From positions 115,389-179,388 of the forward strand of contig CAJINV010000012.1 in NCBI GenBank assembly GCA_905178155.1: DNA of 64,000 nucleotides. Direction: 5' to 3'. The position numbers were made by a program, and so were the translations under genes. How positions within the stretch are numbered: the stretch's first letter is position 1; each line of letters begins with the position of its first letter. The stretch comes from Amoebophrya sp. A120. Lineage: Eukaryota > Protista > Dinoflagellata. The notes beneath the pieces were generated by a model. It was given only the letters and a program-made list of their open reading frames with translations, made no database searches and had not been told where the DNA came from. Shown here in pieces: positions 1 through 64,000 of this stretch.

Positions 1-2697
1 GGACGACCCCTTCTGTATTCGCACCCCGTTCTGGTATTTCACAGCCACCTCCTGTCCTGGCTTGCCCTCTATTCCATCGCCGTCTTGCTGGCCCCGCGCC
101 CACGTCCCGTCATACACATGCCCGTCGGGCCTGCAGTTTGTAAAACGGACCAGGAAGTACTTAGCGTTACAATTCTGAGATCAAAGCACACTGCTTGTCG
201 TGGTTCCAAAACGAAAAATGCCCGTAATGAACCCTCTAAAAATGAAAATGAAGAGCACACGACCACGCATATTAGAGTGAATATGAGGACGACGCCGGCC
301 CTCGTTCCTCGCACTACTTACCTTGTGATCATAGGTTAGTACTACACGACGCATGATGAAACTGCAAAAAGTAAAGGCTGTATTATACCATCGCATCTTG
401 CCGCGCCCATGTCGGTGGTTCTCCAGGAAGTTGCCCTCGTTCGATATGCGAGCAAAACTCATCTTGTTTAACTCGAATGCCCCAATCATGAACTTGTGTT
501 GCACATATCGCTTCATGTTGGTGATCATACTCGTGGTGCCACTACCACACGGTAGAAGGTAGCAGTAGCTTCTTTCCTAACATAGGTATCACCAAATACG
601 CTTGTTCCGCATGACAAACATACATTTTATTTATTCAATTTTCATAGGAAGAAACTCGTCCGTTTTGCTTCATTTCGCTCACGTACATGCTCGCCCGTCA
701 TTCCACGTCTGCTATGAACTGCAAAAGTATCGTACTAGTAGTAACCAGCCATGCTCCGGCTGCCGCCGGAGCGCAAGGCTGTTGGGCCGGGGCAAGGCTG
801 TTTGCCGCTCGGACCACAACCCCACGGGCCTAGTAGGCACAACGAAACGCACTGGATTCCTGCCGTCGATTTGCGCCGCGCCAAGCCGCAGGACCACTTG
901 CGCGCCTCCCGCGCCTGTGGGCGCTCTGCGCAGGGAGCAGCTGCAAAAAACGCCGGGGGCGAACAGAAGCCGCATGGCGGGAGAGGGTGGCGCGGGAGGG
1001 TGGCGCGAGAGGGGTGCGCGAGAGGGTGGCGCGAGAGGGTGGCGCGAGAGGGTGCGCGAGAGGGTGGCACGGAAAGGCGCCGAACAAAACAAGTCCGCGA
1101 ATGGCCTGCAGTGCGAAATATGGGCACTACCATGCGGATTCGCGCCCGCTTCTTTGTGCTTTTGCCCTCTCGCAGACCTCTCGCAGACCCTCTTTTTGGC
1201 CTCTTTTGGGGGTCCCCGCTAATAATCCGGCTATACTCGCGGGTAGAGGTCGACAGAGGTGGCCGAGAGGTGGCCAAGAGGGTCCGCGAGAGGTCGCCCC
1301 TTATTCGCAGCACCTCTCTCCACCTCTGTCGACCTCTCGCGCCCCCTCTTTTTGACCTCTCTGCGCCCTCTGTGCCACTTAGGCGGCGCCTAAGGGTGGG
1401 CGCTTACTGCGGGCCTTATTCGCGCACCCTCTCGCGGACCCTCTCGAACGGGGTCCCGCGCCACCTCTCCACCTCTGTCGACCTCTTTTCTACCTCTGTC
1501 GACCTCTTTTTTACCTCTCGGCCACCTCTCTGAGACCCTCTGTCTACCTCTTTTTTCGCATGAATATAATGTATAGTGATTGCAATACAAATTAGCTCAG
1601 CATGACAAATGGAATTTGTCATGCTGTTTTACCTTGAGAACGAGCTTTGTAATGCATAAATGCAATTACTACGAGTACGATACTTTTGCACAGGATATCT
1701 GCTTCCCCACGCCGATTTCTCCAGGGAAAAAATCACTTTTTGTGAGCAAAAACAATAAGATGCATATTCGTTTTTTTGTATGTGCGCCGAGGAAGCTCTT
1801 CTATGATGATAGAGGACATGCTGGCTCGAATATCGTGCATGACAAACAAACGGCTCAATGTAGAAGTGCTTGATGTAAAGTTATTTTTTGCCTCTGGATA
1901 GATGCTGCATGGAGTTGAAGAATGTGCCGTCGTACGTTGATTTCAGGCTCTTGTAGACACCTATAGTATAATTATGTTGTTGTTGGCTTTGTTTGCAGGT
2001 ACACATCATTTCATGATCATGTGCTGAAGCAGCGCAGCTAGCAGTTTCATTTTCATCATCACCAGCATCAACAAGTTCGCGCTTCAAAAAAGTAAGTACT
2101 TCACGCCGCTCTACTGCACCAGCTGGCCTTCTTCAAGCATGACACAAGCATTTATTTCCAGCTTTCAGCTATACCTCTCCCTTGTATGATGTCGTTTTGG
2201 AAGTCGCCCTCGTATTGGCTTCCGTCCTCCCAAACGTACTGACCCCTCCCGTGCTTCATGCCGTTGACATACTCGCCCACGTAGACAGATTTATCCTCGA
2301 ACCACACTTCGCGGCCTTACTACAGTGAAAAATGCCCCCACCCCCAAAGTTGCAAAAAATTATTGTGATGCGAAGTTTCCAAATGAAAACCTTTTGCCAT
2401 GCATGAAAGGAGTATGAATCTTTCTGATGCAGAGTCTAGGCGTGTATCGCATCGTTTGCATGACAAGTGCCACTCTTGCTGGGGTCTTTTGCAATACAAA
2501 TTTTTGCTATTCACGATTAGAAACCTGTGATGCTGATAGATGCAAGAGGGCAGATGTTTCATTTGGAAAGGTTTGCAATACAAATGCTCCCAAGTTCGGG
2601 GGTGGGGGCATTTTTCATTGTAATAGGCCTCTCCCATGCTTCTTGTCCTGCATCCACTGTCCTTCATACCTGGAGGTCGAGTTCGTGTGGGGCGTAT
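1..2697 (-). CDS. MORN-repeat protein paralogue 1 (multi-exon; 5' start unresolved, 3' end runs off the window)
   Basis: Joined exons read YEGQWMQDKKHGRG-REVWFEDKSVYVGEYVNGMKHGRGQYVWEDGSQYEGDFQND...QHGVGKQTWNDGRAYEGNFLENHRHGRGKMRWPDGHVYDGTW, which are MORN repeats. Confidence 0.8.
445..685. mobile_element. Degenerate introner (predicted GT-GA intron 441-686)
   Basis: Imperfect TIR TATGCGAGCAAA / TTCGCTCACGTA; internal GCATGACAAA; removing 441-686 gives GRA|YEGNF in frame. Confidence 0.6.
713..1697. mobile_element. Introner family A, interrupted by a nested insertion
   Basis: TIR core TGCAAAAGTATCGTACT / AGTACGATACTTTTGCA; TSD TCTGC. Confidence 0.85.
743..1573. mobile_element. GC-rich nested insertion with GAGAGGGTG / CACCTCTC repeat arrays
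   Basis: Splits the family A consensus; possible TAGT duplication; repeats in both orientations. Confidence 0.7.
1718..1900. mobile_element. Degenerate introner, H-like
   Basis: TIR TCTCCAGGGAAAAAATCACTTT / AAAGTTATTTTTTGCCTCTGGATA; removal restores MQH|GVGKQ. Confidence 0.65.
2318..2625. mobile_element. Introner family F
   Basis: TIR TGAAAAATGCCCCCACCCC / GGGGTGGGGGCATTTTTCA; TSD GGCCT. Confidence 0.85.
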
Positions 2698-3405
2698 TTT
2701 TTATACATTTATTTTCATATGCATAAGCGTAGGCGTTGCTTTTGGTTTTGCTACAGCTACTTGCGAAGCTGCATAATCTACTCTTGTTTCGGAAAACAGC
2801 TTGTATTTTTCTAATATTGTGATTTCACACCGACGACGAGCAAGCTGATGGAATCGTCCGTGTCCACCCCGCCGCGGCAAAAACTTCTACGAAGAACTTG
2901 TTCATCTTGTAGTTGGTTCGACTTGCCAACCGCACCAGTTCTTGCTGGGTTCTTTCTCGGCGGGCGCCGGCTTGCTGGTCCTGCTCTCCTTCGTTTCTCG
3001 TTGCTCTTGCTCCGCCTGCTGTCGGATCATGTAGTAGTTCCGATGCCGTTACGGCAACGGCTGCTCTCTACCGAGAATAGTGATCAGCTTTCCTACCGCG
3101 AAACAACCGTACGCGTACTAGGTCCGGGGGGCTACGAAATAAACAGGTTCTTGGACGTGCTTTGGTGTGATGCAGAAGCGACAGTGTCGTGGCTCGTCAA
3201 ATAAGGAACTTGACCCGCTTGATGTTCCTCGTGCTGTGCTTTGCTTTGGTCTTTACTTCCACAATTTTTTTGTTCAAGAAGGCTGCTGCACCGATAACCG
3301 ATAACCGCAGATCAGGATGAGGTACTAGAGCAGGTTCAGCTCAAGAATAGAGATGTTCATCCGGGAAGGACGTCGTCGGCTTGGGATCAACATCTTCTGG
3401 CACAA

Positions 3406-6400
3406 CTAGACTTTCACCAAAGCTAAGTAACCGCCCTTCCTCAGGTACTCTTCTTGCTTTGCGGCGGGGGTTTGCTTTTGCTTCTCCCGTTCCAGCCAGG
3501 GGCTGCTAAACTCCAAATCGACCGCCCAACTCATCAGCAACCGGGCCCATCTATGAAGGCGTCAGGATCGAAATCAACAAAGTCGAAAAAATCAGGAAGG
3601 CAGATCATAGTCCTGAAAAGGGTTGCGAGTTGGGCTGCTGACTAGCATGACATAAGGGAGCCGAGCTCTTTGGCCCTAAACTACCGCATGACAGATTCGC
3701 TTCGAGAACGGGGAAAGTCTACAAGAACTGTCCCGCGCCGACTACAAACTGCAGGTCTAACTGGCATCGATTTTGTGCATCACATTTTTTTCGATTTTGT
3801 CGATTTCGAACCTGACACCCCCATACCACCCGCTGCGTCCGTAGTCTCGGCCGGCGTTGAAGTAAACCGTGTCGGAAGTCGTCTCTTCCAGCCATCCGCA
3901 ACTGTCGATGCACGCCGGCCCGAGAAAAAATTTCCCGAATTTTTTCGTGTGGCAGTGGATCAGCGCCATCGTTTGGACGTCCGCGAAGGGGTTCAGCGCA
4001 TCGCCGTACCGTCCCAACCCCGCGTGCTCGATGGAGGAGTAGGAAAACCACATGTCATATCCACTGCAAAAAGCATCGCACTCTTAGTAATTGCATTTAT
4101 ACATTACAAATTTCTTTCTCAAGACAAATCAGCATTACAAATAATTCAATTTGTAATGCTGGGCTAATTTGTAATGCAGTTTATACTAGTGCGATGCTTT
4201 TGCAGTTCATATGTCAAAATCGAAAGACACATCGCTCGTCAGTAGCTCGTGGAAAAACAAAAACCGCCATCGCTTGTGGGGGTATCGGGGTTGTATCGAC
4301 GTGCTTTTCTTCTCGTCGAAGACTCCGTCTAGCTCGTCCGGATGCCCCTCCACGGGTGGTTATGCATTACAAAAGCATCATTACTAGTAGTAGAAATCGC
4401 ATTACAAATAATTCGGTCAGCATGTTGACACATGGAATTTTTTGTCATGCTGTTTTACGTTGGGGTAGAGATAATTTGTAATGCATGACTGCGATTATAA
4501 TTGCTACGAGAAGTGCGATACAATTTTTGCACAGGATAGTGGTTTATCCTGTGCAAAAGTATCGCACTCGTACAAATGCTAATGCAAGTCTTGCATTACA
4601 AATCTTGTTTCCACGGCAAATCTGCATTACAAATTTTATTTCTCATGCTGAGGAAATTTGTAATGCATTTATACGAATACGATACTTTTGCACAGGATAG
4701 TGGTTTCCGGTAGTCAACCGTGGTTACGATCGCGGTGGGGAAGCTATCACATGCAAAAGTGTCTGGGTCTGGAGTGTTGCCGAGTTTGTCATGCATACTT
4801 TGCATGACCCAGGATGTCTGTAATGCACGCCCTAGCATCACAGATTTTTAGATGGCTTCCTGATGCCTACTCCGCATGACAAATGCTCTCCCGCCCGCGT
4901 AGCACCAACTAGACTCCTCTTGCTGGTCATGCAATACAGATTTTTTTAGAGTCCAAGGTTAGCATCACAAGTTCCAACCTTCCAGACCCAGACATTATTG
5001 CATTTGATAGAAGCGGTACAGCAGCAAAATCTCCATCCAGGGCTGCTCACTGCCCAGAACCGCGATTTTCAAATTAATTTCCTGCTGGCCCAGCAACACC
5101 GTTTTGTCGTTCTCGTTGTGCCAGGTCTATCAAAATGAGAAATCCCCCCGCCCCATATCAAAACGGAAATTTGTGATGCTGCTTCGTGGCCACAAATCAG
5201 CTTTGTATTGCAGAGAGGAATGGCGGCCAGATCCCCAGGCTAGGTAGGGGCTTATGTGTCTAGTTGTTCAGCATGGCAAACGGCTCCCCTTTAGGCCTAA
5301 CAGCATGACAAACCGCCTCCATAATGGGGCGAAAGCTTCTGCCCTTGTCTTCTTGCAAAACAGATGTGATTTGTGACCTCAAATCCGCAACACAAATTTT
5401 TGGACACATACCTTTTCAATGTGGGGAGGGGGGATTTTTCCTCTCAGTAAGGTCTTGTTCGAATTCGCGAAAAACGTATCGCGGTTCCGCATGATCGCCG
5501 CGTCAAGAATGAAGACCGTGTCGTCTTGGTAACTGGAAACGGTTTCGTTTACGAAATGGAGATATGCATTGCAGACGTATCGCGCTAGTATAAATTGCAT
5601 TACAAATCGACTTACCATTACAAATTGAATTTCTATTGCGGATTTGCCTTCAGAAAAATATTTGTAAATGCATAAACGCAATTAAAACGAGTGCGATACT
5701 TTTGCACTGCATAGGAGAAACACCAAATCGCTGTCCGTCCAGAGATTCAGTGCGTAGTCGCGCTTGAGCGCTCTCTATGAGATGCAAATGTGTCTGGGTC
5801 TGGAAACTTGTGATGCTAAAATGTGCACGATGAAAACGCTTCCGAATGCAGTCCGGCTTGACAACTTCCCAAAACGCTTTCTGATATGCAATCCGCATGA
5901 GAAACTGTGTTTTTGCATGACAAAAGAGGCTGCGACTTTTGTTGGTTATGCAATGCAGATTTTCTAGGTATGGAAAGCTAGCATTACAAGCTCCAACCTT
6001 CCAGACCCAGACATTTTTGCAATGCATACTCTCTTTTCCAAGATGTTGCGGTAAAGTTTCTGCTTGGTCTCCAGCGCAATCCGTCGGTTTTCCGACAACC
6101 CAGCGTGTCATGAATTGCAAAAGTATCGTTATCGTATTCCTATTCGGATAAATGCATTACAAATTTCCTCAGCACGAGAAATGAAATTTGTAATGCTGAT
6201 TTACCTTAAGAGATGAATGAGAAAGATTCGTAATGCATGACTGCAATACGAGTGCGATACTTTTGCACAGGATACGTGTTGCATCCACCCGAAAGGATTG
6301 CGGAGCAGCAGTTTTCCGAAGGTCTGCGCGTTCCATTTGTGCGACAGCTCTTCCTGGAGTGGCGGAGCGATGGGACGATTGTGGTCTTCGAATTGGGTAG

Positions 6401-9400
6401 TTTCCTCGTTGGCGAAAGAGCCGGGTTTGTAGTCCTCTTGCATCTGGTCGCCTTTCTCCTCGTCATTGTTCTCTAAATAAGAAGGTTTTGACGTACTAGA
6501 TTCTACTCCATCATCATGAACATGATCCCCCACGACCTCTCGTGCCCAGCTGTCGTTACTGGACTTCTGCATGTAGAACGCGTTCTTCTTTACCGCTTTT
6601 CCGTACAGCAAAAGATCGCGTCGGTAAATTTCTGGGATCCTCAAGGGCGGGGGCCACAGGTGCGACTCGGCCATGCGAAGCCCGGGGGACTGCTTCAACA
6701 GCTCGCACTTGGGGTAGACCAGTTTTTCGCTGATTTTTTCCATAATTTTCTCGTCTACTACTTGGTGGTGCTCTTGCAGTTGTTCCGCATTCGATCCTAT
6801 CTCGGTAGAACTTGCTGTGCCGCCCTGCTGTAGTGGCTCTTTATCCGCCACAAGTTCCCGCTGATAGTAAACGATCTCCCGACTCTGCACCTTATTTCGG
6901 GCGATTTCCCCACTGCAAACGTCCTCCCCGCACCCGATCCGCTGCAATGGTGCGAGTCTCTCGTAGTAGATCTTCGCTACATTGTCCATGAAATCCCCGA
7001 TTTTGGACGCCAGGTGGGCGAATTCCTGTTGGATGCGGAAGAGTTTGGTGCGCAGTTCGAAGATGTTTTGCTTGTAGAACTTCGCTATAACAAACTCGTC
7101 GATGTACTCCAACTCGTCTTCAATGGATTTCCGCAGCGAGGAGAGTAGTACAGCATTGCTGTCGTCACAGGGCGGGTCATCATGTTGTTCCTCGTGTTCT
7201 TGGCCCTTTTGCTGCTGTTCGCCATTCTGTAGTTCCTGTCCGGCATTGATTCGCAACCTTTGTTGTTGAACAAGAAGAACTTCCTGTACTTGCTTCTCCC
7301 GCCCCGCTACCACGCTTTTCCTGAACTTCTGCAAATGTTGCCAGTGATGGTTGAAGTAGGTGGTGTGCTCGATTAAAGGGAGAAGGAAGGAATGAAGCGT
7401 GATCGGCTGTCGGTGAAATGACTGCTGCTCGTCCTTGTAATCCGTCCCTTCGTAGTTATTCAAGTTCTCGACACCCCCGAGCACGATCCTCGTCGGCGCC
7501 AAATTCTCAATTTCCCCCGCAACGTCCTCACCGGTCAGCAAGGTTGTGTTGGTAGTCGGCTCGAAAAATGCGTCCGCGCGCCGTAACGCCTGCCGGATCT
7601 GCAGCGCCAGGTCTTCGTGGGTCGAGAGAATTTTCAGGAGTTTGAACATTTCTTTTGGGTGGGTGTAGCGACCGGTCGAAAAATCATGCGTCTTCGCTGG
7701 TGGACGTCGACCAAGAACTTCTTGTGTGCCGCCGCTTGATGTTCTTGCCACCGGCCCAACGACCTTCGCAAATTCTTCGTCCGTCTTTTGCATCTGCTGC
7801 TCCAGCGCTGTCGCGTCGAATGGAAGGTGAGCGTCGTGTAAAGATGCAGCCGTAGCATGATCATCTCCTTCGTTATCAGAATTTCTATCGGTCGCATTCA
7901 CCACGCCGAGCGCTTTCCCCAGGTCAATCTTCGAGGCCACCCTTCCGGTCCTGTCCCGCCCGAGCCCGTCCGCGTCTGGTGCAGCGGCTGCATCGTTATC
8001 AAGTGTAAAAATGTCTGGGTCTGGAAGAATGCGCGATTTGTCATGCTTCTCTGGCATGAGACTTAAACCTGTCATGCAGGTTACCCAAGATCCCCAATTT
8101 CCTGTCATGCAAAGACGCAGTTTGTCATGCAGAATAGGCAACACCTAGAAGCTCAGAAACTTGTCATGCTGAGCCAGCACTTATGGCCTCCTCATGATAC
8201 GCCACCCAGCATCACAAGTTTCCAGACCTAGACATTTTTACATTTGATAATCGTCTTGGAATAGCAAAGCGGCGTACTGAAAAATGTTCATCATTTCTCC
8301 GCTTTGCTCAGCCTTCTCCAGCATCTCCTCTTTCTCCCATATCAAATGCAAAAGTGTCTGGGTCTGCAAGATTGCCAGGTTTGTCATGCACATTTTGCAT
8401 GACTCCTGATGTCTGTGATGCATGCCCTAGCATCACAGATTTTGTGAGGGCTTCCTGATGCCTATACCGAATGACAAATGCTCCTTCCGTGTACGCAAAA
8501 CTTGGACTCTCTTTGCTGCTCATGCAATACAGATTTTTTTAGAATCCAAAATCAGCATGACAAGTTGGATTCTTCCAGACCCAGACAGTTTTGCAGTTGA
8601 TATCCCAGGTGTGAGCCCGGTAGTCGTGAATCAATGTCTGGATGTTCATCCTGTCCAGTTTCGACAGTGATAGAGTCGTGCCGGAAGCTGTTGTACTAGA
8701 GGACTCTTTGTTCGAGCTCGACGTGCCCGCTTGGTCCTCCTCGTTTGTGCTTCTGGAGGACAATACGTCAGGACTTGCATGATCCGTTCCGGTTTGAAGA
8801 ACTGAGTCTGTGGTGCCTCCACCTGCGTCAATCCTACTTGTTCCCCCTTTCACCCCCAAAACCCGACGATCTGGGTACAGCAGCTCCACTAATGGCATCA
8901 AAATTCTCCGCAGGATATTCTGGTACGTCTCACACGCGAACCTCGCCACGTCCCACAAATTCGGTTTCGCGGCATGCACCGCTTCATCTACGTTCGACAT
9001 TTTCTCAATGCCAAAAATGCTGCCGTCGGTATTCTCCGAGCGGAGGCAGGCCTGGTTCAATTTCAGCCCGATGTTGACTTTCTTGCCTGATGAAGTAGAT
9101 GATGAGCCAGATGATGGGTTTTTTGATGACTCATGATCTCCTTGACTTCCTACTTCTCCTGGTGCTGTTGTCATGTGAGATTCCTGGTCAACATCTTCGT
9201 GCTGCTCCACTCCACCTGCGTCCTCAGATGTAGTTCTGGTTTCTGATGGGAGGAGGTTGTCGATCTGTCCATCAAAAAAGGCGTCGTCATCGCTGTCACC
9301 TACAAGAAGTTCCGCCATTCCCAGCTTTCCCAAGCAGTAGCTGAGTTCTATCCACTGCAAAAGTGTCTGGGTCTGGAAGAATCCAACTTGTCATGCTGAT

Positions 9401-10113
9401 TTTGGATTCTAAAAAAATCTGTATTGCATGAGCAGCAAAGAGAGTCCAAGTTTTGCTACACGTCGGAAAGAGCATTTTCCATGCGGTATAGGCATCAGGA
9501 AGCCCTCACACAATCTGTGATGCTAGGGCATGCATCACAGACATCATGAGTCATCCAAAATGTGCATGACAAACCTGGCAATCTTCCAGAGGACCCAGAC
9601 ACTTTTACATTTGATAAGTTCCGCGGTTTCGCAATCTATGGTCTTCGTGTACAGGGGTGTGTCCCAGCAGCACCGGTTGAAATTCAGAGGTGAAGATGTC
9701 ATGCTGGAACCGCTAGAAGTACTACTGCCCGGATTATCGAAACAAACGTCGTTTGCGTTCGGACCCTCTACACAGCAATTTTCGTAGTTCAAATGGACAG
9801 CCCAGGGGTCGGTGAAGCAGAAAAACTCATCCCGGTAGAAGGTTAACTGGCCGGAAGGCTGGGCGAGGGCGAAGAAGAAGATCATGATGTTGCTGACGGT
9901 CAAAATTGTCGCTGCGAGCAGGGATAGAACCAGCGGAAAGGGACGACAGCGACCCGCGCTTCTCGTGCTGGTCGTCCGGAATAGGATTACTGCCAGATGA
10001 GTAGTTGAGGGTTTGGTGGAGGTTCCGCGTCCGGAACAAAATAAAACCCCATTTCCTCGTGGTCCGCCTCTACTCCGCCTTCGGTGCCGCATGTGTTGCA
10101 GTCGCGGCGCCAT
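3406..10113 (-). CDS. Large membrane-anchored or secreted protein with C-terminal DUF268 (methyltransferase-like) domain; 12 introners
   Basis: After removing elements: IAVLGSEQPWMEILLL...VTTVDY...FDMWFSYSSIEHAGLGRYGDALNPFAD...KKFGKFFLG...VYFNAGRDYG, matching the DUF268 SSIEHxGLGRYGD motif; N-terminal hydrophobic segment; stop at 3406-3408; start codon uncertain. Confidence 0.75.
3552..3825. mobile_element. Introner family D
   Basis: TIR GTCAGGATCGAAATC / GATTTCGAACCTGAC; TSD CCATC/CCACC. Confidence 0.85.
4058..4211. mobile_element. Introner family A
   Basis: A-type TIRs; TSD TGTCA. Confidence 0.9.
4361..4538. mobile_element. Introner family A (left twin)
   Basis: A-type TIRs; flanked by GTGGT. 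Confidence 0.85.
4545..4699. mobile_element. Introner family A (right twin)
   Basis: A-type TIRs; flanked by GTGGTT. Confidence 0.85.
4745..5009. mobile_element. Introner family B
   Basis: TIR core TGTCTGGGTCTGGA / TCCAGACCCAGACA; TSD GAAGC. Confidence 0.9.
5128..5449. mobile_element. Introner family C
   Basis: TIR AAATCCCCCCGCCCCA / TGGGGAGGGGGGATTT; TSD AGGTC. Confidence 0.9.
5563..5713. mobile_element. Introner family A
   Basis: A-type TIRs; TSD GGAGA. Confidence 0.9.
5776..6028. mobile_element. Introner family B
   Basis: B-type TIRs; TSD CTCTC. Confidence 0.9.
6109..6274. mobile_element. Introner family A
   Basis: A-type TIRs; TSD CGTGT. Confidence 0.9.
7997..8249. mobile_element. 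Introner family B
   Basis: B-type TIRs; TSD ATCGT. Confidence 0.9.
8340..8602. mobile_element. Introner family B
   Basis: B-type TIRs; TSD TCCCA. Confidence 0.9.
9349..9616. mobile_element. Introner family B (inverted relative to the 8340 copy)
   Basis: B-type TIRs; TSD AGTTC; internal sequence is close to the reverse complement of 8340-8602. Confidence 0.9.
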
Positions 10114-10691
10114 GATCTCGGATCCGCCCGGCGTCGCCCTCTCGCGTAGAACTACGTCCTTTGTCAAACAATAAACAAAACCACGGACGCACCAGATAAG
10201 TACACGAGGTGGATGTCAAGAAGAAAACATCAAGACGGGGGCTTTCACAAAAACCAGGAGTAAACGTCGAAAGCTTTCATCCCGTTCAAGCAAATTTATG
10301 AAGCTGCAAAGAAAACGCAATACAAAACAGGAGAACGCCTACAACGAATAGGAGAAAGATAACATGTGGTCGTGGTAATGCAAGATAAAAACCGTTGTAA
10401 ACTGATGAGAAGCTACTAGTACTAGCAGCTTCACCTTCAGCTCATCGAAGACGTAGAACAGAAGGGGTTGCGTATGTCATCTGTGTGACGAGGGGCCCGG
10501 GGGACAAATAAATCAACGCCGTTGATGCGCAGGTCAGTAGAATGATATTGCAATCTAGCAGTAGTAGATGTTGGGAAATAATTGTGACTAAAGTGCTGAT
10601 GTGTGAGATAGCTGCGATCATAGGATTAGGCGACAACTAGAGACAGAATCACATTCGCAAGAAAAATCACCACAACCCCAATCAGATATCC

Positions 10692-35959: not shown

Positions 35960-36050
35960 GCGTCGCTTAAATCATCATGTGTCGCTTAAATCATTTGTGT
36001 CGCTTCAATCATTTGTGTCGCTTAGATCATTTCTTCTTGTGTCGCTATCG
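35960..36050. repeat. 18-bp tandem repeat (TGTGTCGCTTAAATCATT), about 4-5 copies
   Basis: Directly visible, downstream of the ATPase stop codon. Confidence 0.8.
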
Positions 36051-54200: not shown

Positions 54201-57200
54201 CTGTCACGCAGTTTTCACGTCTGAGCGAAAACTGTATGACAAATCTCCATGTTGGAAATTTGTCATGTAAAACGCATCAAATTGCATGACAAATTTCCAC
54301 GTTGGAGAATTTGTCATGCAAAACGCATCAAATTGCTGAGCCTGAATTTGAAATGGCTATCTCCCTCATTGCAGGACAGTTGAAGTGGAAACTTCAGCTT
54401 TCCCTCATCGAAGGAAAGTTGAAGTGGCTATCTCAACGCTCCTCCATGCAGGAAAGTTGAAGGAGCCGCTTCAGCAACCTTCGCACCTCTTTCGTCCTTC
54501 ATTTCTACATGACAAATTTCCAAACTTGGAAACTTGGCATCCATAAATGAAGGACCACAGAATGAAAGCCAAAGTTGTTGAAGTGGCCACTTCGGCTTTT
54601 CCTCCATCGGAGATCGGAAAGTTTAAGTGGCCGCTTCGTCAACAGTTTGTTTGCCCCTCATTTCTGCATCGCACATTGCCAATCATGGTGGCAATTTGTA
54701 TAAGCTGAAACGAAGGACAAAGGAAAGCGCTTCCTTTGTCCTTCGAAAGTTCCGGCTCCCGCTCGTGGGAGAACGAAAAAGCTGTGATCTGAGTAAAGAT
54801 TTTACTCAGGTCCGGCGGCCTAAGTAAAACTTTTACTCAGGTCCGATGGCCTGAGTAAAATCTTCACTCAGGAGGAGCAGGGCCATGCCTAAAAAATTGC
54901 TCGCGAGCGGTCGGGATGAGAAAAACCCGCTTGAAAATGAAAAAAACATTTGGAATTTCTAAGCGGCTTTCTGTTCAGAAACTTGCTCGCGAAAGATTCT
55001 TCTCGACGCAGTCCATGGAGAAAAGCCCGGCCGGATATTCAAAGAGTATATTTGAATTTCCCAGGCGGTTTTTCTTCACCCGCAGGTCCGGTGGCCTGAG
55101 TAAAGCTTTTATTCCGGTCGCGTTTCCATTGTCCTTCGTTTCTGCATTCGTAATGCAGGAACGTAGGAGAAAACAGGGGCCACGTCAACTTTCCTCAGAT
55201 GGAAGAAAGTTGAAATGGCCACTGGCTGCAGCTGCTTCGTGCTTCTTTTGCTCCTCATTTCTGCACCACAAGCGTCCAACTTTGGAAAATTGCAACGCAG
55301 AAGTGAAGGAGCACTAGGACAACAGAGAGGCAAAATAGTTGAAGCGATCAACTCAGCGACGCGGTGGATCGGCGACCGGTGCGTGATGGAGGAGAACGAA
55401 GACGATAGGACGGCTCGGCGCAGGTTGTCACCGGTTTGAGTAATGCCCAAAAACCATGGACGCATCCCCCCCCTCCCCCCCCATTACTTGAATAATGGTC
55501 CGACTTTTGTTGGACAAGATCCAAGAAGAAAAATGGAATTTGTAATGCTGATTTACCTAAAAGGGGATATTTGTCATGCATGATCGCAATTGCTACGAGT
55601 GCGATCATACTTTTGCACAGGATACAGGGGCATTCTTGCCCGAATTATGCAGACGGCCAGCAGGCGGCGGGACCGGGAGCTGGAGTAATCCTGGCATAGA
55701 GTCGACGCGTACAGTGCCCGTCATCTTCGGCAGAAGTTGTCCGCTTGACGTTGATACCCGCCTCAGGCTTGCATTCATCTCCTATCAGAAGGAAAAACTC
55801 CACCTCCCCATATTGAAAAGGTATGCTTCCGAAAGTTTGCGTTGCTGATTTGAGGTCACAGATCCTATCTGTCTTGCACGAAGACAAGGGCAGAGGCTTC
55901 CGCCCCATTATGCAAGCGATTTGTCATGCTGTTGGACCTACAGAGGAGCTGTTTGCCATGCGGAACAACTAGACACATACGGCCCTACCTAGCCTGGGGA
56001 TCTGGCTGCAATGCCTCTCTGCAATACACAGCTGATTTGTGTACACACGTTCAGCATCAGAAGTTCCGCTTTGATATGGGGAGGGGGGATTTTTCATTTT
56101 GATATCTCCTCGTCCGCGAGCTCACCGCCGGCAATAAAGTTGCGGCAAGATGATGAACCTTGCTGGTTTTCAATATTATTTCCCGTAGTTCTAGTTGTAT
56201 TCCTTTCCCCGCGCAACACGGGGGACGTGGCGAAACTTTCGAGCTGCCAGTCGAGTAGCACCGGATTGCTTATCCTGTGCAAAAGTATCGCACTCGTACT
56301 AATCGCAGTCATGCAAGACAAGTTTCTTTTTCAAGCTAAATCAGCATAAGAAATTCCATTTGTCATGCTGAGCTAATTTGTATTGATAGTCATATCTACA
56401 AGATCTTTGCAAGACTTGCGAAAAATTCAAAATGCTCAAGAGTTCAAGAGTTCAGTGCATCTTTTGAGTTCGGTTCACCCTTTGAGCTCAGTTCACCATT
56501 TGAGTTCAGTTCACAACTTGAGTTCAATTCACTATTTAAATTCAGATATCTCCAAGTCATAATCTCATATTCAAAAGATTCGAATCTCAATTCTCAATCT
56601 CAAATCATAATCGAGTCATCTTCTCAAAAATCGCAACTTCTTATCTCATGTTGGAATCATCAACGTCTTATCCTATCTTAAAAATAAAATTATAATCTTC
56701 TCAAAGTCATAGTCTCAATCTTCATAATTGAATCGACAAGCCTTCATCAAGATGTGAGTCTTCATCTCAAAAGTCATAAATTTAGATCTTGAAGCTTTAA
56801 TCTTATATCTAAAAACTATTCATATTACAGATCGGGGCGCAGTATCATCATATCGCAAGGGCGGGGGGGGCGCGGGGGGGGGCGAGGGCCCCCCGCATGT
56901 AAGTCTTCATCTCAAGAATAAAAATCACTCATACAGATTGAGGCGCAATATCATCACATCGAAAGGGCGGGGGGGGGCGGGGGGGGGCGAGGGCCCCCCG
57001 CATGTAAGTCTTCATCTCAAAAATAAAAATCATTCATACAGATTGAGGCGCAATATCATCACATCGAAAGGGCGGGGGGGGGCGCGGGGGGGGGCGAGGG
57101 CCCCCCGCATGTAAGTCTTCATCTCAAAAATAAATATCATTCATACAGATTGAGGCGCAATATCATCACATCGAAAGGGCGGGGGGGGGCGCGCCAAGAT

Positions 57201-60200
57201 ATCTGCAAAGTTATCCAAGATATCTGCAAACCAACAAGACTGCGCAGGGAAGGAAGCAAACGCGGGAGCAGGCTGAGGCCCATCAGGCTATAACAAACCA
57301 TGGCGAACATCTTCGATCGACCGGAAATACGGCGGCAGCTACTCCGGTAAAAAGCCGCTCACAGTCTTCTTTCGTTTATATATAGAAAGTAAACTCCCCA
57401 AAGGAAGTTTGAATAGAGCGCGTATACATTATGATTATATCACAAAGAGACCTGTCGGCAGGACTTCTAAAAAAAAAACAACCGGACACGTCGACCCTAA
57501 GTCTGCCAAGATCTATGACCAGTGCAGTGATGACGTCGGAAGCAGTGCGACATCTGGCCGCACCGCAGAAAATGCTGCGTCGATGGCGTCCGTATAGTCT
57601 TCCGAGATGCCCACGACTTCGCCCAGAAAAAATTTCGCCCGATGCCACGAAATCAGCCACCAGTCCCCAGTCGCCAGGCGAACACGATGGCGCTCGCTTT
57701 CCTTCTGGCGCTTCGGCTCCTGCGAGGTGAAAAACCACGACACAATGTGGCCACTGGCGGCCTTCGAATCCCCGGCCCAAATGTACTCCGCCGCAACCCC
57801 CCTAGCGTTCGGCTCCCTGTGCTCCTTCTGCGCACCCGTGCGCCGGTGGTAAATGACATCCCGGCGAATTGACGCAAATCGGCCGCGCTCGCCCGAACCA
57901 TGCTCCTCCTTCGACATTGTGTGCGTGGCGGCTAAGTATCTCAATGTCTTCAAGAAACTAGAAAGTAAAAGCGTAGCAGGAAAAAAAGACAGCTTGCTGG
58001 AGGAAAAAAATAAAAGCGCTGGCGGCGATCATAGATCTAAGCTAATGCATGAAGATGACAATAGAGGCGCACTGAAAGCCAACGCTCTGAGTGATGTCTG
58101 CATGGGTGAGACGGAAATAGGTGGTCGCTGTTTGGAAATAGGATGCGCATGGCCGAGGGCATGCGATATATAAGACAAGACTTTTATCATGAGCGGCCTA
58201 CGCGCCTACCGCGGCTGTTTTCCGCTCTCCGGCAATCTATGGTCTAAAACGATCCACGGCTCGACGATTCAAGTGCGGGCCACTAGCGCAGCCAATTTAA
58301 GAACGTAATCAAGTCAATACTCGAAGCCTACGGCGGAGATCCAGGCGCCTGCTAAGTACCTAGAGCGATCGGGCATGGGGCTAAGGCGTTCGACTTCTAT
58401 CTTCTTTCAAAAGAGGGCTCGGCCCGATGCAAGTATGCGCCATCCCCCTAGCGGGTGCAGGTGGCGGCGCGCATGCATGTTCACGCGGAATCTGCCCGAG
58501 GTGTGTCCCCTGCCAGGCATGATTTACCGCCCCGCGCGTCGTGCGCTCGGGTCGCGGTGTCAATTGCTTCCAGATCAGATGCTTTTTGCAGTTTCTGCCA
58601 AGTTACGTCGCGCTGCCCCGTGCGCTGCTTCCCCGCCCCGGACTGTGCACTCTGTGAAAATTGCTCTTTCTAGCGCAAGTTTGCGATGTCAAACCGAGCG
58701 GGCGAAGCTATTCGAGTCTCGTTGCAATACTACGAGTACAATACTTTTGCAATGCATATTGCTCTGCTGGGACCAACGTTGCTGAGTTCCTGTTCCCTCC
58801 GTCGGTGTTGGATCGACGTCGGCGCTGGTCGTCCTCTGCCAGGTTCGTGTATCAAAAGGAACAATCCCCCCCCCCCCCATATCAAAGCGAAAATCTGTGA
58901 TGCAGATTTGTGGTCACAAATCAGCTCTGTCTTGCAGTAGAGGACTGCAGGCCCACATCCAGCCTGAGTGGGAGAGATTTTGGCCTAGGCGCTCAACATG
59001 ACAAAAGTCAATGCTGTAGGCCCAACAGCATCACAAACCGCCGGCATAATGCGGGGGGCCTTCTGGATTTGCCTTCTTGCAAGACAGACGCGATTTGTGG
59101 CCATAAATCAGCATCACAAATTGAAATTTCCGAAAATATACATTTTCGGTATGGGGAGGGGAAATTTTTCCTTTTGATATCGCGGTCCCGCTGTTCCTGA
59201 TCCTGACACCGCGTTGATGTTTATTTCCTGCGTGCAGGAGTTGTTGTAAAAATCATCGCCACTACTTTTGCGGCCGAAGAAGTACTTGGTGTATATCCTG
59301 TGCAAAAGTATCGCACTGCAATCATGCATTACAAATCTTTATCTTAAGGCAAATCCGCATTACAAATTTTATCTCGCATGCTGGAGAAATAATTTGTAAT
59401 GCATTTATACGAGTGCGATACTTTTGCAGTTCATAGTGTAGTTATTTTTACAACTACCTCCACTACAACCATCCTCAGTAGCGAATCTCCGCCGGCCAAA
59501 ACCAGCACCGGCCAAAGCACTGCTTCTGGCCCTTCTTGTGGTGTCGATTATGCATTGCAAAAGTATCGTATTCGAACTCGTATCAATGCATTACAAATTT
59601 CCTCAGCATGAGAAATTGAATTTGTAATGCGGATTTACCTTGAGAAGAAAATTTGTAATGCATGATTACAGTACGAGTACGATACTTTTGCACACAATAT
59701 CGATAGAGAGATTGCGAAACTTTTTGCTCGGCACCGGCCCGTAGTGCGGGTCTGTGGGAAAGAAGCGGTCAACGTATGGAAGCGTCAGGTTTGAAATCGC
59801 CAAAGTTGAAATAATTTGTGATGCATAAAATGCATAGCGCGAAATACGTGTGTTGCAGAGCAGGCAAGGGAGGCCGATTGCAAGCCTGTTTGGGGTTAGA
59901 GCTCGAGCTGCTAAAGTAGCATGAGAAAATCAGTCACATTTGCCTAAACAGCATGACAAACTGGATTTAGGCATCGCCTAAATTTGTCATGCGCCACTTA
60001 GAAACTGGGTTCCAACTGGCATTCATTTTATGCATCGCAAACTATTTCAACTTTGACGATTTCAATCCTGACAGTTCCATACAACGGGTTGTTGCTGAGT
60101 TCCTGTTCCTTTCGTCGGCCTTGGATCGACGTCGCTTTTCGTCTGCCAGGTTCGTGGTCCCGCTGTTCGTGACACCGCGTTGATGTTTATTTCCTGTCTG

Positions 60201-63200
60201 TCGCAGTTATTGTAAAAATGATCGCCACTACTTTTACGGCCGAAGAAGTACTTGGTGTAGTTATTTTTATAACTAGTACCTCCTCCACTACCATCCTCAG
60301 TAGCTGTTCTCCGCCTGCCCAAACCAGCACCGGCCAAATATGGGACTCTCAAACGTTACATTCTCAACTGTTACATGATTTGTCATGCAAAACTCCCATC
60401 ATTATCCACACCATCAAGCTGCTTCGCATTACAAGTTCTCGACGCGCTAGATAGCACTAGAATCTGCGCCACACCTGTAATGCAAAAGGCGTAACGTTCC
60501 CCCTTTCACTTTTGCCATTCTTGCATTACAAATTCATGTAACGGCTGAGAATGTAACATTTGAGAACCCCATACCAAAGCGCTGCTTCTGGCCCTTCTTG
60601 TGGTGTCGATAGAGAGATTGCAAAACTTTTTGCTCGGCACAGGCCCGTAGTGCGGGTCCGTGGGAAAGAAGCGGTCCACGGGTTTTGATAGTACTTCAGA
60701 TGGATGTTCTTCCACATTCGACGCTTCTTGTCCGACCTCCTCGCTCTTGCTGCTCTTATCTGTCGCGGTGTCAGGTGGACCACACCCTTGCTCGCCTCTG
60801 ATGTTGGAGGTGGCTTTGTCGTTTGTCGTGTTGGCTGCAAGTTGAGCGTGCTGCAGCTCCTGCACGCCGGCGCTAAGACCATAATTTTCACGACCGGCGT
60901 CATAACTTGTTGTAGTAGCTGCTGGCCCCCCGTTTGTTCTTGTTGTTCTAACGTTATCATAAACGAATTGCTCAGCCTCTGAGCAGGATGAGGAATTGTT
61001 GGGGTTCCCAAAAGTTATGCAGCTTTGCGGAGATGCAGCACACGACGACGAAGAAGACATCGCTGCAGCTTCGGACATCAAAGTTGTTCCTTGATGCACT
61101 ACCGCGGGGAAGGTAGCACTACGACTAATAGATGATGACACAGCACCAACAGCAAAAAATGAGTTGTGTCGCGACAATTTATTCTTTTCCTCGTCCCTGT
61201 ACTCTTCGGAGGTGAAATTAGACACGGCAGTTGGCCGCGGCCCAATGAGCGACGACGCCCGGGAGGCGGCGTAATCCCTTGACGGGCTGGTGTGGCGGTC
61301 GCCTGCGGAAGAGCAAAACGACCTGTTGTTGTTGTAGTACCCACTGTGTCTGTCGTGGTGGTGGTCTTCATCATCTTCCGACATGTATGGATTTTTGCAA
61401 AAGTATCTTCGCACTGCAGCAGGAAGAACCGCATTGCAAATTAGCTCCCCATGACAAATGGAATTTGTCATGCTGATTTACCTTGGAAGCGAGATTTGTA
61501 ATGCATGACTGCGAAGATTCTACTTGCTACGAGTGCGATACTTTTGCACACCAGGATAACGTGCCAACGCTGTTGCGATCGGCGTCCGAAACGGAAGGGG
61601 CTGGAGAGGAGTGATGACGATGACGATAGTGATCATAAAACTCTTCTTCCCGTCGATTGCGATCATGATCTTCGACCACGCGGCCTCCACGACGATTCCG
61701 ATTCGGCAACAGGACCTTCATGCGTCGGCTATCAAAAGGAAAAATCCCCCCTCCCCATATCGAGACGAAGTTTCTGATGCTGTATCTCCGTACACACAGG
61801 AGCGCTGTCTTGCGATACGGCATGGCAGCCAGATCCTCAGCCTAGGGAGGGGCGTTTGGGTCTAGTTGTTTAGCATTGCAAACGGCTGTCCGCTAGGCCC
61901 ACCAGCATGCCGAATCGCTTCCACAATGGCGCGGAAGCGTCTGCGCTTGTCCTCTTGCAAGACAGACGCGATTAGTGGTCTCAAATCAGCAAGACGAATT
62001 CTCGGAAACCTACCTTTTAGATATCGGGAAAGGGGATTTTTCCTCTCAATAGCGGTAGCTGCGTCGTTTGAAGCGGGGCAGCGTTCGCGGGGACTCGCGA
62101 GCTAAGGCGTCGGATATGGAAGTGTCAGGATCGAAATTGACAAAATCAAAAAATTTCTGATGCACAAAATCGCTGTCCGTTAGAGCCTCAGTTTTCAAGT
62201 GGCGCATGACAAATTTGGGGAGCACCAAGATCCAGTCTGTCATGCTGTTTGGGCAAAGAAGACTGCTTCTGTGTTGCTACTCGTCTGGCAGCACATTGTA
62301 TACCCTTAAACAGGCACACAATGGGCCTCATTTGCCTGCTCCCCAATACAGGCCTTCAGTGCCCTACATTTTACGCATCACAAATTTTTCGACTTTGTCG
62401 ATTTCGATCCTGACACTCCCATATCGGAGTCCGATTCGGTATCACCCTCGCGAAATTCAAACTGCGGGTCGGTGATGAGTCTTCGAGAGTGGGCAACATC
62501 TAGAGGCTGAGGCACTCGCAAACCACGAGTAGTTCTTGTTCTTTTCTCGCGAGCGCCCTTGCTGCCGTCACCCGCAAAAGAGCTGAAACTGGACGAAGAG
62601 GAACTTTTTCGAGGCCGAGCGCGTATGCATTTTTACAAACATCTACTTCGGGTCTGGAAACCAGAAGAACCGAGCTTGTCATGCTGTTGCTGCTGCTCAG
62701 TCGCGATTATCGAACAAAGAGCTGCGTTTTTACATGATGACCGCCAAATAGCGCTGCCCAGTTCTGATGCGGGATAGTACGCATGGGCATGGCAAAATGA
62801 ACAATAACTGGTGTATGTGTCATAAATATAAATGCTTCATTAGTTGTCCCTCCAGACACGGACAATGTGTCGTGTGGTCCAAAAGCTAAAGATGCATCAC
62901 AAAGAACATGCGCTCTACTTCCAGACTGACCCGGACACAACATTTCGCATTCGATAGGAACCCGGCAGTAGTTCTCTTTCGGAAAAGAAACTACATCCTC
63001 GAAAAGAAATTTATTGTCTTTATGGGAGTGTCAGGATTGAAATCGTCAAAGTTGAAATGATTTGCCGTGCATAAAATAGATGGCAGTTGGAACCCAGTTT
63101 CCAACTAGCGCATGACAAATTTTGGTGGTCCTCAAATCCAGTTTGTCATGTTGTTTAGGCAAAGAAGACTGATTTTCTCATGCTACTTTAGCAGCTCGAG

Positions 63201-63604
63201 CTCTAATCCCAAACCGGCTTACAATCGGCCTCACTTGCCTGCTCTGCAACACACGTGCCTCGCGTCATGCATTTTGTGCATTGCAAGTTATTTCAACTCT
63301 GTCGATTTCAATCCTTACACACCCATAGTCTTCCACGCGCTTGTACTGCTTCGTCACTGATCGGAAGTTGAGCTCGATAGAAGTAGAGGTGGTAGCTGAT
63401 GTCCTATTTGCAAAAGCGCTAGTTGTATCCGTACCTGACAAGAACGGACGAGCGGCTAGATCACGCAGCTCATTCCTGTCGTCATCAAGATGGTTCCTGT
63501 ACTGCTGAGCTCGTTCATCTTTTCCTCGAAGAACCAGGTCCGCAACGCGGGTGAGGGCGAATTTCAACATCTCCACTTCCACGCCGTTGCCGTGCAGCTT
63601 CTGC
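36292..63604 (-). CDS. Giant P5-type (ATP13A-like) cation-transporting ATPase, partial (5' part lies beyond the window); about 28 introners
   Basis: Motifs in the expected order: KLHGNGVEVEML (~63580), IRQFEFDQKLQLQSVIV, KGSFEAI, EGFYVLAVG, FLGLIYFRNELKPDS, LTGDNLFTAVHVA, VFARMTPSGK, MVGDGGNDCASLRASHAG, IREGR, then TM segments. DKTGT not seen in the window. Whether 36292-43380 belongs to the same gene is less certain. Confidence 0.75.
37977..38734. mobile_element. Introner family D with a nested insertion
   Basis: D-type TIRs; TSD ACCTA. Confidence 0.85.
38244..38682. mobile_element. GC-rich nested insertion (~91-bp direct repeats and a 13-bp CACCTGTCGAGGT array)
   Basis: Interrupts the D consensus just before the right TIR. 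Confidence 0.7.
39119..39245. mobile_element. Introner family J (short, palindromic ends)
   Basis: TIR TAACGTTAACGG / CCGTTAACGTTA; internal TTTGTCATGC; TSD degenerate; frame restored. Confidence 0.7.
40411..40715. mobile_element. Introner family D
   Basis: D-like TIRs; TSD ATATG. Confidence 0.85.
40759..41047. mobile_element. Introner family E
   Basis: E-type TIRs; TSD ATTCC. Confidence 0.9.
41888..42047. mobile_element. Introner family A
   Basis: A-type TIRs; TSD GCTAG/GCTAC. Confidence 0.9.
43383..43653. mobile_element. Introner family B
   Basis: B-type TIRs; TSD GACCG. Confidence 0.9.
44276..44348. repeat. Core of a very short IR-bounded intron
   Basis: 12-bp IR CATCCCCATCCA / TGGATGGGGATG enclosing two TGTCATGC motifs; boundaries unresolved. 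Confidence 0.55.
44436..44585. mobile_element. Introner family A
   Basis: A-type TIRs; TSD AAGCT/AAGGT. Confidence 0.9.
45207..45452. mobile_element. Introner family B
   Basis: B-type TIRs; TSD GCCAG/GCCCG; splits the GDGGNDCASLRA|SHAG motif. Confidence 0.9.
46038..46317. mobile_element. Introner family E
   Basis: E-type TIRs; TSD ACCTC. Confidence 0.9.
47292..47602. mobile_element. Introner family C
   Basis: C-type TIRs; TSD AAGAC. Confidence 0.9.
48452..48776. mobile_element. Introner family C
   Basis: C-type TIRs; TSD TTTCC. Confidence 0.9.
49772..49997. mobile_element. Introner family K
   Basis: TIR ACAGTGCACAACTCCCC / GGGGAGTTGTGCACTGT; TSD TCCTC. Confidence 0.85.
50388..50651. mobile_element. 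Introner family B
   Basis: B-type TIRs; TSD CCGCC/CCGAC. Confidence 0.9.
50687..50927. mobile_element. Introner, I-like
   Basis: TIR TATGACCTGCTCAAGC / GCTTGAGCAGGTCATA; TSD GCGAG. Confidence 0.9.
53416..55624. mobile_element. Introner family A hosting a 2-kb TIR element
   Basis: A-type ends; TSD CAGGG. Confidence 0.85.
53469..55521. mobile_element. Non-autonomous TIR DNA transposon (~2.05 kb), 3-bp TSD CAA
   Basis: ~40-bp TIR GATCTCGCCCAACAAAAGTCGGACCATTATTCAAGTAATG / CATTACTTGAATAATGGTCCGACTTTTGTTGGACAAGATC; no transposase ORF. Confidence 0.85.
55783..56104. mobile_element. Introner family C
   Basis: C-type TIRs; TSD TCTCC. Confidence 0.9.
56386..58721. mobile_element. TIR-less nested insertion (~2.3 kb), possible TTG duplication
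   Basis: Splits the A consensus at TTGTATTG|CAAT; contains tandem repeats and a short unassigned ORF (57513-57953, minus strand). Confidence 0.7.
56825..57195. repeat. ~106-bp tandem repeat with poly-G tracts, about 3.5 copies
   Basis: CATGTAAGTCTTCATCTCAA recurs at ~56896, 57001 and 57108. Confidence 0.85.
58850..59179. mobile_element. Introner family C
   Basis: C-type TIRs; TSD TCGTG/TCGCG. Confidence 0.9.
59294..59435. mobile_element. Introner family A
   Basis: A-type TIRs; TSD GTGTA. Confidence 0.9.
59549..59699. mobile_element. Introner family A
   Basis: A-type TIRs; TSD TCGAT. Confidence 0.9.
59775..60081. mobile_element. Introner family D
   Basis: D-type TIRs; TSD CAACG. Confidence 0.9.
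60339..60573. mobile_element. Introner family I
   Basis: TIR TATGGGACTCTCAAACGTTACATTCTCA / TGAGAATGTAACATTTGAGAACCCCATA; TSD CCAAA. Confidence 0.9.
61386..61558. mobile_element. Introner family A
   Basis: A-type TIRs; TSD ACATG/ACGTG. Confidence 0.85.
61730..62051. mobile_element. Introner family C
   Basis: C-type TIRs; degenerate TSD TCGGC/GCGGT. Confidence 0.8.
62115..62423. mobile_element. Introner family D
   Basis: D-type TIRs; TSD TCGGA. Confidence 0.9.
62624..62956. mobile_element. Diverged introner, family B
   Basis: GGGTCTGGAA and TTCCAGAC..CCCGGACA remnants; TSD lost. Confidence 0.6.
63021..63327. mobile_element. Introner family D
   Basis: D-type TIRs; TSD GTCTT. Confidence 0.9.
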
Positions 63605-64000
63605 TATTCTGTGCAAAAGTATCGCACTCGTACTAATTTTTGCATTTATGCATTACAAGTCTAATTCCTAAGGCAAATCCGCATTACAAATTCAATTTGT
63701 AATGCTGAGCCAATTTGTATTGCAATTTATAAAATAACACTATGTATAGAATTTTTACTCGGATTTTTCGCCCTTATAGATTATAGGGGCGCCCTTACAA
63801 AATGAATTCTAGAAAAAAGGGCATCTAGAAACTTCCCTTAAGGGAGCCCTTAAGGGAAGCTTCTAAGGGAACACGCGTAAGAAAAAAAAAGGCATCGCGG
63901 GGAACAAACATCCTGCCGGTGTGTCCTCCACGCGGGCGGTCCGGCCGGTTTTTAGCAGGTCTATTCTGGCTACCCCCAAAGACCGCCCCCGTTTGGGGGG
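63605..64000. mobile_element. Introner family A, interrupted at ~63731 by a nested insertion that runs off the window
   Basis: A consensus stops after GCAATTTATA; unrelated sequence with CCCTTAAGGG palindromes follows. Confidence 0.7.

Follow-up and report, generated by a model that had tools for sequence, protein, structure and literature searches.

Results

The locus and its host genes

We analysed a stretch of 64,000 nucleotides from Amoebophrya sp. A120 (contig CAJINV010000012.1, positions 115,389 to 179,388; hereafter the window, with coordinates counted from its first letter), in which genes are interrupted by short elements that begin with TAT, end with ATA and are flanked by 5-bp direct repeats. 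All genes that could be recognised are on the minus strand, the strand on which the elements and introns below are listed. The A120 gene model P0006 (5434 aa) matches 36295-63603 residue for residue (its residues 420-5434; gene model and Pfam); its P5-type ATPase-like domains stand amid long low-complexity stretches, it carries about 30 element introns in the window alone, and it may represent a single, very long gene or a model that fuses genes. A DUF268 gene and an Rrp45-like gene adjoin at 3400-11800, and since their homologues are numbered consecutively (g4497 and g4496, the first named AT5.2) this gene order is conserved; the top match of the Rrp45-like open reading frame (ORF) comes from the Amoebophrya group (A25, 34%). 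Several MORN-repeat genes of the same strand stand close together at 2000-27000; Pfam confirmed two, and the rest were recognised by eye.

Element families share their ends and an internal motif

By blast, relaxed boundary searches and inspection we found 56 whole elements in the window and one more that runs off its end at 63605, in good agreement with the initial annotation, which had counted about 55 TAT...ATA elements with 5-bp target-site duplications (TSDs); the elements of the curated list make up 18,730 bp, or 29% of the window. A strict scan, which required TAT...ATA ends flanked by an exact 5-bp direct repeat and complementarity at 15 or more of the 25 terminal bases, found 30 matches in the window vs. 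a mean of 0.0 in 20 shuffles. An extra sample of 111 metagenome loci (631 kb from one record), found by a scan with the family B end, contains all families of the window at 72-95% best identity. The families, labelled from blast apart from the element at 62624 (assigned to B by eye), are A (~150 bp; 15 short copies and 4 long shells), B (~255 bp; 12), C (~320 bp; 6), D (~305 bp; 6), E (~280 bp; 4) and F (~225 bp; 2), next to 8 singletons; nested inserts expand five copies into long shells of 0.76-2.5 kb. Some ten families with specific lengths and unrelated terminal inverted repeats (TIRs) had been proposed; the specific lengths hold, the unrelatedness does not, the families having in common a TAT[CG] start, AAA at positions 11-13 and an internal motif.

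In the end logos A reaches 82-94% at positions 11-13, behind the TAT[CG] start; the terminal T, A and T are retained in 714, 714 and 706 of 720 ends, and TGT occurs at 3 of the 720. Window and loci together gave 403 elements that fall into 26 clusters, 15 of them with two or more members. The near-universal TAT/ATA ends and 5-bp duplications noted at the outset are likewise found, except for ends deviating at 2318, 5128, 6109, 45207, 49772 and 445, and for a 6-bp duplication at 4545. Among 351 elements whose calling did not depend on the motif, 340 carry the internal TGT[ACG]ATGC, in a median of three copies; the first copy lies ~40 nt inside each end and points inward, an arrangement that would correspond to the sub-terminal binding sites of a transposase. 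Pairing of the two ends is predicted with a probability of 0.78-0.84 at positions 1-3 (n=40) and of 0.43-0.96 over the 16 positions of the terminal stem; TIR positions 4-7 are weakly complementary (0.41-0.74), with a left/right asymmetry in some families only. Orientation relative to the sense strand is about even in window and loci (24/20 for A, 29/21 for B), as expected from the earlier observation of both orientations. The family A end pattern was not found in viral contigs, and Rfam gave no match within the window. One homologue search likewise brought no match.

Elements insert with a 5-bp target-site duplication

The clearest record of insertion lies in a tandem duplication at 58760-60700, where all five sites are filled in one copy and empty, with a single 5-mer, in the other: a family C element at 58850-59179 (empty site at 60148), two of family A at 59294-59435 (60249) and 59549-59699 (60600), one of family D at 59775-60081 (60665) and one of family F at 60339-60573 (59505), all of them also introns in the gene model. 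In addition, the DUF268 protein and its AT5.2 homologue can be aligned in a single frame across 12 elements, several of these sites being free of gaps. Homologue alignment covers a family D element of the DUF268 gene (3552-3825), family A elements at 4058-4211 and 5563-5713 (the latter with a TSD lacking G and an empty homologous site), two adjoining family A elements (4361-4538 and 4545-4699, together 4361-4699), family B elements at 4745-5009, 5776-6028, 7997-8249, 8340-8602 and 9349-9616 (the last with an empty homologous site) and a family C element at 5128-5449; those at 3552, 4058, 4745, 5776, 7997, 8340 and 9349 are also scan matches. For the adjoining pair, the frame and the correct protein are obtained only if a 344-nt unit is removed from outer end to outer end. 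Removal at 4058 joins FD to MWFS, as the initial annotation had it, vs. FDAWFS in the homologue.

We then took a duplication census over 470 elements of loci and window, called without a duplication filter (0, 0 and 1 in shuffles): 317 have a perfect 5-bp duplication, 86 match at four of five bases, two have 4 bp and one has 6 bp. The 41 calls with two or fewer matches of five were dropped from later counts; in roughly half of them the ends were called too far inside, and the others are decayed or 4-, 6- and 8-bp cases. Rare apparent duplications of 4, 8 and 6 bp are seen at L074:194-448, L033:1205-1358 and window 4545-4699, respectively. Two patterns of the window were rejected in the larger set: an excess of lengths divisible by three (29/51 in the window; 179/126/165 for remainders 0/1/2) and a skew of mismatches to duplication base 2 (8/15 in the window; 12, 7, 6, 12 and 7 over the five bases).

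With their TIRs, fixed-length TSD, empty sites, multiple copies and lack of coding capacity, the elements are best read as non-autonomous TIR DNA transposons resembling miniature inverted-repeat transposable elements (MITEs). Since P0006 matches exactly and the end logos agree, they are the published introner elements of Amoebophrya A120, whose inverted repeat (IR) is described as TAT, seven variable bases and at least three A, with 3-5-nt direct repeats and a variable or unknown border (PMC7789003).

The mover and its relatives

No transposase or integrase domain was found in 121 scanned of the 151 ORFs of at least 230 aa in the loci, nor in 32 ORFs of the window. Long copies that have the same TIRs and encode a transposase, as the initial annotation had envisaged, were likewise not found, no autonomous element with these ends being present among 14 long candidates or the scanned ORFs in ~0.7 Mb; the 14 candidates proved to be shells with nested inserts or chance pairings. 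Pfam found no transposase or integrase in the long shells, and the one ORF scanned of the set formed by L069 and the intron at 34070-35366 gave no match.

No named superfamily fits the elements on every feature. The large A120 families are listed as TIR DNA of unknown superfamily (PMC12130899), and family 38 of A120 is described as 'Ginger, 5-bp TSD, TA/TA termini', with ORFs like the integrase regions of Copia and Gypsy and without Ginger ends (PMC12130899). The earlier statement that no superfamily fits is thus correct for the features taken together and too strong for single ones, given the Ginger label of family 38 and the TA...TA ends of IS3EU/GingerRoot (PMC10045372, PMC6839031, PMC2836005). 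Because of these two likenesses the ends point to integrase-like DDE transposons, and by analogy we lean, by a little, towards an integrase-like DDE enzyme as the mover.

Elements are removed from transcripts together with 5 nt

Our RNA-like data are four contig sets from at most two samples of one study, their RNA nature being guessed. Among 15 joints listed, of 25 in the region 25700-45600, the skipped stretch is an element with exactly 5 nt more in 10, a GT-AG intron in four and a 1297-nt intron (34070-35366) in one; the element joints listed thus skip element plus 5 in 10/10 cases. These elements belong to family A (26267-26416 and 26603-26752, 155 nt skipped at each; 30840-30995, 161; 31061-31212, 157, with neither GT nor AG possible), B (30066-30321, 261, GT-AG in the register given below; 31738-31987, 255; 32070-32333, 269), E (31393-31678, 291, with two letters shared at the joint), F (29257-29474, 223) and D (a shell with a nested insert at 37977-38734, 763). 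Piece coordinates give seven further skips: a family A element at 15085-15243 (by length arithmetic), a family E element at 15597-15875 (284 nt), singletons at 39098-39263 and 42230-42456, and elements of families D (40411-40715), E (40759-41047) and A (41888-42047). The last five and the shell at 37977 are also introns of P0006.

In that gene model 29/29 elements fit the removal of 5 nt beyond the element, never 4 or 6. Besides those already given and the five of the tandem duplication, they are family A elements at 44436-44585 and 61386-61558; two family A shells with nested inserts, each a single intron in the model (53416-55624, 2209 bp, and 56271-58758, 2488 bp); family B at 43383-43653, 45207-45452 and 50388-50651; family C at 47292-47602, 48452-48776, 55783-56104 and 61730-62051; family D at 62115-62423 and 63021-63327; family E at 46038-46317; elements of 112 bp (44255-44366), ~225 bp (49772-49997) and 241 bp (50687-50927); and a degenerate B-like element with a decayed duplication, GTTCC/CGCGC (62624-62956). 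The element at 45207 lies in a P5-ATPase motif, and P0006 rejoins SLRA and SHAG there as had been predicted. In total, 40/56 elements have transcript or gene-model support.

The elements contain stops or shift the frame, and their removal in silico restores ORFs of 1225, 1937, 2153 and 644 aa, with 5 nt as the best length at 43/51 elements. GT/GC-AG is available in any register at 5/51 window elements and 6/156 in the larger set; at TCTCC (5563) and TCACT/TCACC (31061) no such register exists, exactly as annotated. For the junction WDE/ENPKKYTRN, in silico removal and the RNA-like joints uphold the rejoining, and its description as non-GT-AG fails, the intron being GT-AG in the inferred register. 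Altogether the elements act as non-GT-AG introns, as the initial annotation had proposed: RNA-like contigs skip them with 5 nt, P0006 removes all 29, and a DNA-like run, described below, retains them.

Junctions agree with a single splice register

We define r as the count of 5'-duplicate bases that stay in the exon, a value that is bounded where the two duplicates differ. Among the imperfect duplications, r is at least 1 at 26603, 41888 and 61730, at least 2 at 29257, 39098, 44436, 45207 and 50388, at least 3 at 31393 and 61386, 4 or 5 at 62624, and at most 4 at 31061; r=4 is the sole value compatible with all 12 informative junctions. The 34070-35366 intron, which is intergenic and has no duplication, no AG and a short inverted repeat only, is unambiguous (0 shared letters, four runs): it reads G-TAT...CATA-CCGA, ends in GA and bypasses a CAG that follows 8 nt later. 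Run X6 has contigs over parts of this intron that differ from it at a few positions, which hints at a near-identical copy elsewhere or at unspliced RNA. Very likely, then, the register is fixed as N-TAT...ATA-NNNN, with the cut between duplication bases 4 and 5.

In register 4 position +2 of the elements is T and positions +3 and -5 are A, as in most of the few local GT-AG introns with RNA support; 55 window introns so placed include one GT-AG, 14 with a GT start and six with an AG end. Over stranded elements A is found at -5 in 184/188, and T at +2 is changed in one. Duplication base 4 is the sole sense-biased position of 15 after codon-position correction (p=2.5e-4; G 73 vs. 52 expected, A 32 vs. 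48, T 24 vs. 36; n=185, the elements among 429 for which strand and frame were assigned), with p=8e-4 in the loci alone (n=159) and no significance in the window alone (n=26). The mirror base 2 is unbiased, so a symmetric transposase choosing its targets does not account for this bias. In 83/185 cases base 4 falls on codon position 3, the usual phase-0 excess. The base before the cut is G in 88, C in 64, A in 37 and T in 30 of 219, so that no pyrimidine/purine junction rule applies. A stop-codon test of registers (one stop, at r=0, among 45) had no power.

Six RNA-supported GT-AG introns of the host all start with GTA (A at +3 in 6/6; three with GTATA), and in this small sample 5/6 have A at -5, three ending TA-TCAG. 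The internal motif occurs in 4/10 GT-AG-type introns examined, three of the ten being predicted only. Motif-bearing GT-AG-type introns with (C/A)TATCAG-like ends lie at 19867-20006, 30383-30478, ~20379-20538 and ~1962-2174; judged by sequence, such introns are candidates for aged, canonicalised introners. About 65% of A120 introns are reported as non-canonical, with a splice signature that is not clear; the nine predominant non-canonical types in Table S4 all begin N-T (in A25, all nine TT), and the spliceosome is nearly full, with U1 small nuclear RNA (snRNA) not found (PMC7789003).

A model for insertion and removal

We reasoned that the elements are small TIR transposons which the ordinary U2-type spliceosome removes in one register by reading the element ends instead of GT-AG, a reading we hold with moderate confidence; that removal is spliceosomal at all we consider probable. 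In this model, insertion in either orientation duplicates 5 bp of nearly any sequence. A trans-acting integrase-like DDE transposase would bind the TAT[CG]...AAA ends and probably also the shared internal copies of TTTGT[CGA]ATGC. The element would be removed with 5 nt, as seen in the cDNA-like product, and in all likelihood the cuts would fall one base upstream of TAT at the 5' end and four bases past ATA at the 3' end; as each duplicate is cut between bases 4 and 5, the target would be restored exactly. TAT would match the host donor consensus (GTATA, GTAA, GTAG) at +2T/+3A/+4T, and the 3' site would be measured from the final A of ATA, at -5, as a candidate branch point whose host parallel is the A of CTA/TTA/ATA-TCAG intron ends. 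The +1G and the AG would be dispensable, with a mild preference for a -1G, and the symmetry of the ends would give the same signals in both orientations. The terminal stem may help to join the ends, and a spliceosome helped by a hairpin is possible. Old copies would decay and drift to GT-AG. Our literature search brought up no study of branch points that lie 5-6 nt before the 3' end. The tiny introns of ciliates offer a parallel for such branch points.

If true, a single register would explain how a transposon can be harmless at any coding position. The near-exclusive 5-bp duplications would follow, other lengths shifting the frame; the ageing of non-canonical introns into GT-AG would be explained, and exon borders of thousands of models would be corrected. 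A single register also makes exact predictions for the 5' end of the excised intron, the position of the branch and changes in U2, U6, Prp8 and U2AF. A bolder version, which we put forward tentatively, posits a major spliceosome without U1 that takes TAT at +2 to +4, counts four bases from ATA, with the branch A at -5, and ignores +1G and AG; the integrase-type clan with TAT...ATA ends and 5-bp duplications would fit this ruler exactly, and one factor binding TTTGT[CGA]ATGC would serve all families. In that version an element would be a perfect intron from the start, wherever and whichever way round it inserts, and one rule would account for tens of thousands of introns that seem to lack signals.

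Several points weigh against the model. The RNA-like runs are contigs of guessed nature, alternative acceptors are possible, and 10 joints of 25700-45600 and 1459 elsewhere lie outside those listed; the gene model was probably built from related transcript data and is hence not independent. The bound r<=4 hangs on one base at 31061 (possibly an assembly error or RNA editing) and on one atypical intron, and r>=4 hangs on the gene model and the 34070-35366 intron. A at -5 is changed in 4/188, including 6109 and 45207 (ATG ends), whose removal is still required; a seventh GT-AG intron, at 52901-53060, has C at -5; the N-T pattern of Table S4 possibly reflects aligner bias; and the predicted pairing of the ends would hide the splice signals.

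Alternative explanations

The strongest rival, unlikely in our judgement, has the terminal stem position a non-spliceosomal or separate nuclease-ligase, as proposed for the non-conventional introns of euglenids and diplonemids, with the cut measured from the base of the stem (1 nt on the 5' side, 4 nt on the 3' side). It would accommodate ends that are both conserved and predicted to pair, the lack of any invariant single splice base, the exact removal of the 2.2-2.5-kb shells, the U1 snRNA not found in A120 (PMC7789003) and the precedent of euglenid introns released as circles (PMC11282704). However, the 34070-35366 intron shows the same geometry with an inverted repeat of only 5-8 bp and no duplication, stem positions 4-7 are the poorly complementary ones, and a pyrimidine/purine junction rule is lacking; most of the few RNA-supported host GT-AG introns share +2T, +3A and -5A, some GT-AG-type introns carry the internal motif, and the G bias at -1 is confined to the sense strand.

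Excision from DNA in the expressing (intracellular) stage, in the manner of ciliate internal eliminated sequences, would yield transcripts from edited DNA, and reversal by a recombinase or transposase would give just such a precise removal of the element with one duplicate. We hold this to be very unlikely, although the DNA-like run may come from a stage other than the expressing one. That run has a flat depth of ~45 on unique sequence and a depth thousands-fold higher on elements (a summed depth that gives no copy number); 8/8 listed contig pieces, at a flank depth of 39-48, continue unbroken from 20-50+ nt of unique flank into elements. Nor would DNA excision be expected to produce a strand-specific bias at base 4, and the contigs that skip elements skip GT-AG introns as well. 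Template switching by reverse transcriptase at direct repeats flanking a hairpin, a classic setting for such artefacts in data that are all cDNA-derived, is scarcely credible, since junctions with two (31393) and zero (34069) shared letters are the main path in all four runs and removal restores the three longest ORFs above (1225, 1937 and 2153 aa) together with homologous motifs.

Nested inserts and remaining elements

The family A shell at 713-1697 (TSD TCTGC) contains a ~830-bp nested insert, and its GC-rich insert 745-1573 is shared with L075:3866-4955 (87.7% over 729 bp), the two occupying equivalent positions in family A copies whose duplications differ (TCTGC and CAAAG). The insert may be cargo that moved together with its element, or it may be a second element that targets family A; its 262-aa ORF has no Pfam match. 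The insert 53469-55521, also in a family A shell, has its own inverted ends of ~85 bp and several internal palindromes, with no match in the loci. The insert 56386-58720 contains three tandem ~106-bp repeats and AT-rich short repeats, and Pfam found no match in three ORFs scanned. The D-shell insert 38230-38510 has a 79% relative at L034:6170-6460. Two inserts inside family B copies (L016:1099-2070 and L039:1523-2115) are flanked by direct repeats of ~18-19 bp that include the internal motif, and one of the two has an A-rich end; they are perhaps retroposon-like elements targeting the motif.

The remaining elements of the window are a degenerate singleton with a decayed duplication (445-685, by eye), a singleton in a MORN-repeat gene (2318-2625, in silico removal), a family A element with ATG at its sense 3' end, so that A-5 is changed (6109-6274), a member of a ~209-bp family with 22 members including the loci (13187-13395, scan and clustering) and the family A shell that leaves the window (63605-64000, blast). 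Two RNA runs, X10 and X11 (19 and 4 reads), cover element ends only and leave unique sequence uncovered; their reads match family B ends (4959-4996 and 7997) at 90-95% and come from other sites. Family B is shared beyond this strain.

Comparison with known systems

The introner system as such is already published, and the register rule, its apparent match to host signals and the shared motif are our additions. None of these three was found in the open literature searched, though figures 3 and S19-S25 of PMC7789003 may show part of them; the text of that paper leaves the splicing mechanism open, as the initial annotation had stated. The A120 introners in print share the organism, the IR pattern, the direct repeats, the non-canonical RNA-supported introns and the 150-320-bp families, whereas their TSDs are given as 2-6 nt by automatic calls and ours are 5 bp almost throughout, with one register and a shared motif (PMC7789003, PMC12130899).

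Among transposons, IS3EU/GingerRoot have TA...TA ends as here (714/720 at positions 1 and 2) but a 6-bp TSD and TIRs of 100-150 bp, a perfect 6-bp duplication being found here in 1/470. Ginger1 and Ginger2 have TGTNR ends (TGT...ACA), unlike our TAT[CG], and a 4-bp TSD that is 5 bp, as here, in TDD-4/5 only; and IS481EU shares TNT...ANA ends but has TSDs of 4, 15 or 25 bp (all PMC10045372, PMC6839031, PMC2836005). Integrase-like DDE transposons have little target specificity, as do our elements.

Among introns, those of euglenids and hemistasiid diplonemids have TIRs that pair just inside the ends and TSD-like repeats, as predicted here, but they use CAG/CTG terminal words and pyrimidine/purine junctions and form circles, whereas our elements have other words and no junction rule (PMC11282704, PMC12621601). 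In Fritillaria borealis, MITE-derived introns carry a TIR and a TSD as here and are removed by an adapted U2 spliceosome; there particular ends (AG-AC, AG-AT) are favoured, with U1 present and U2AF duplicated, whereas A120 has a nearly free first base and last four bases and a U1 snRNA that was not found (PMC11282704, PMC13326754).

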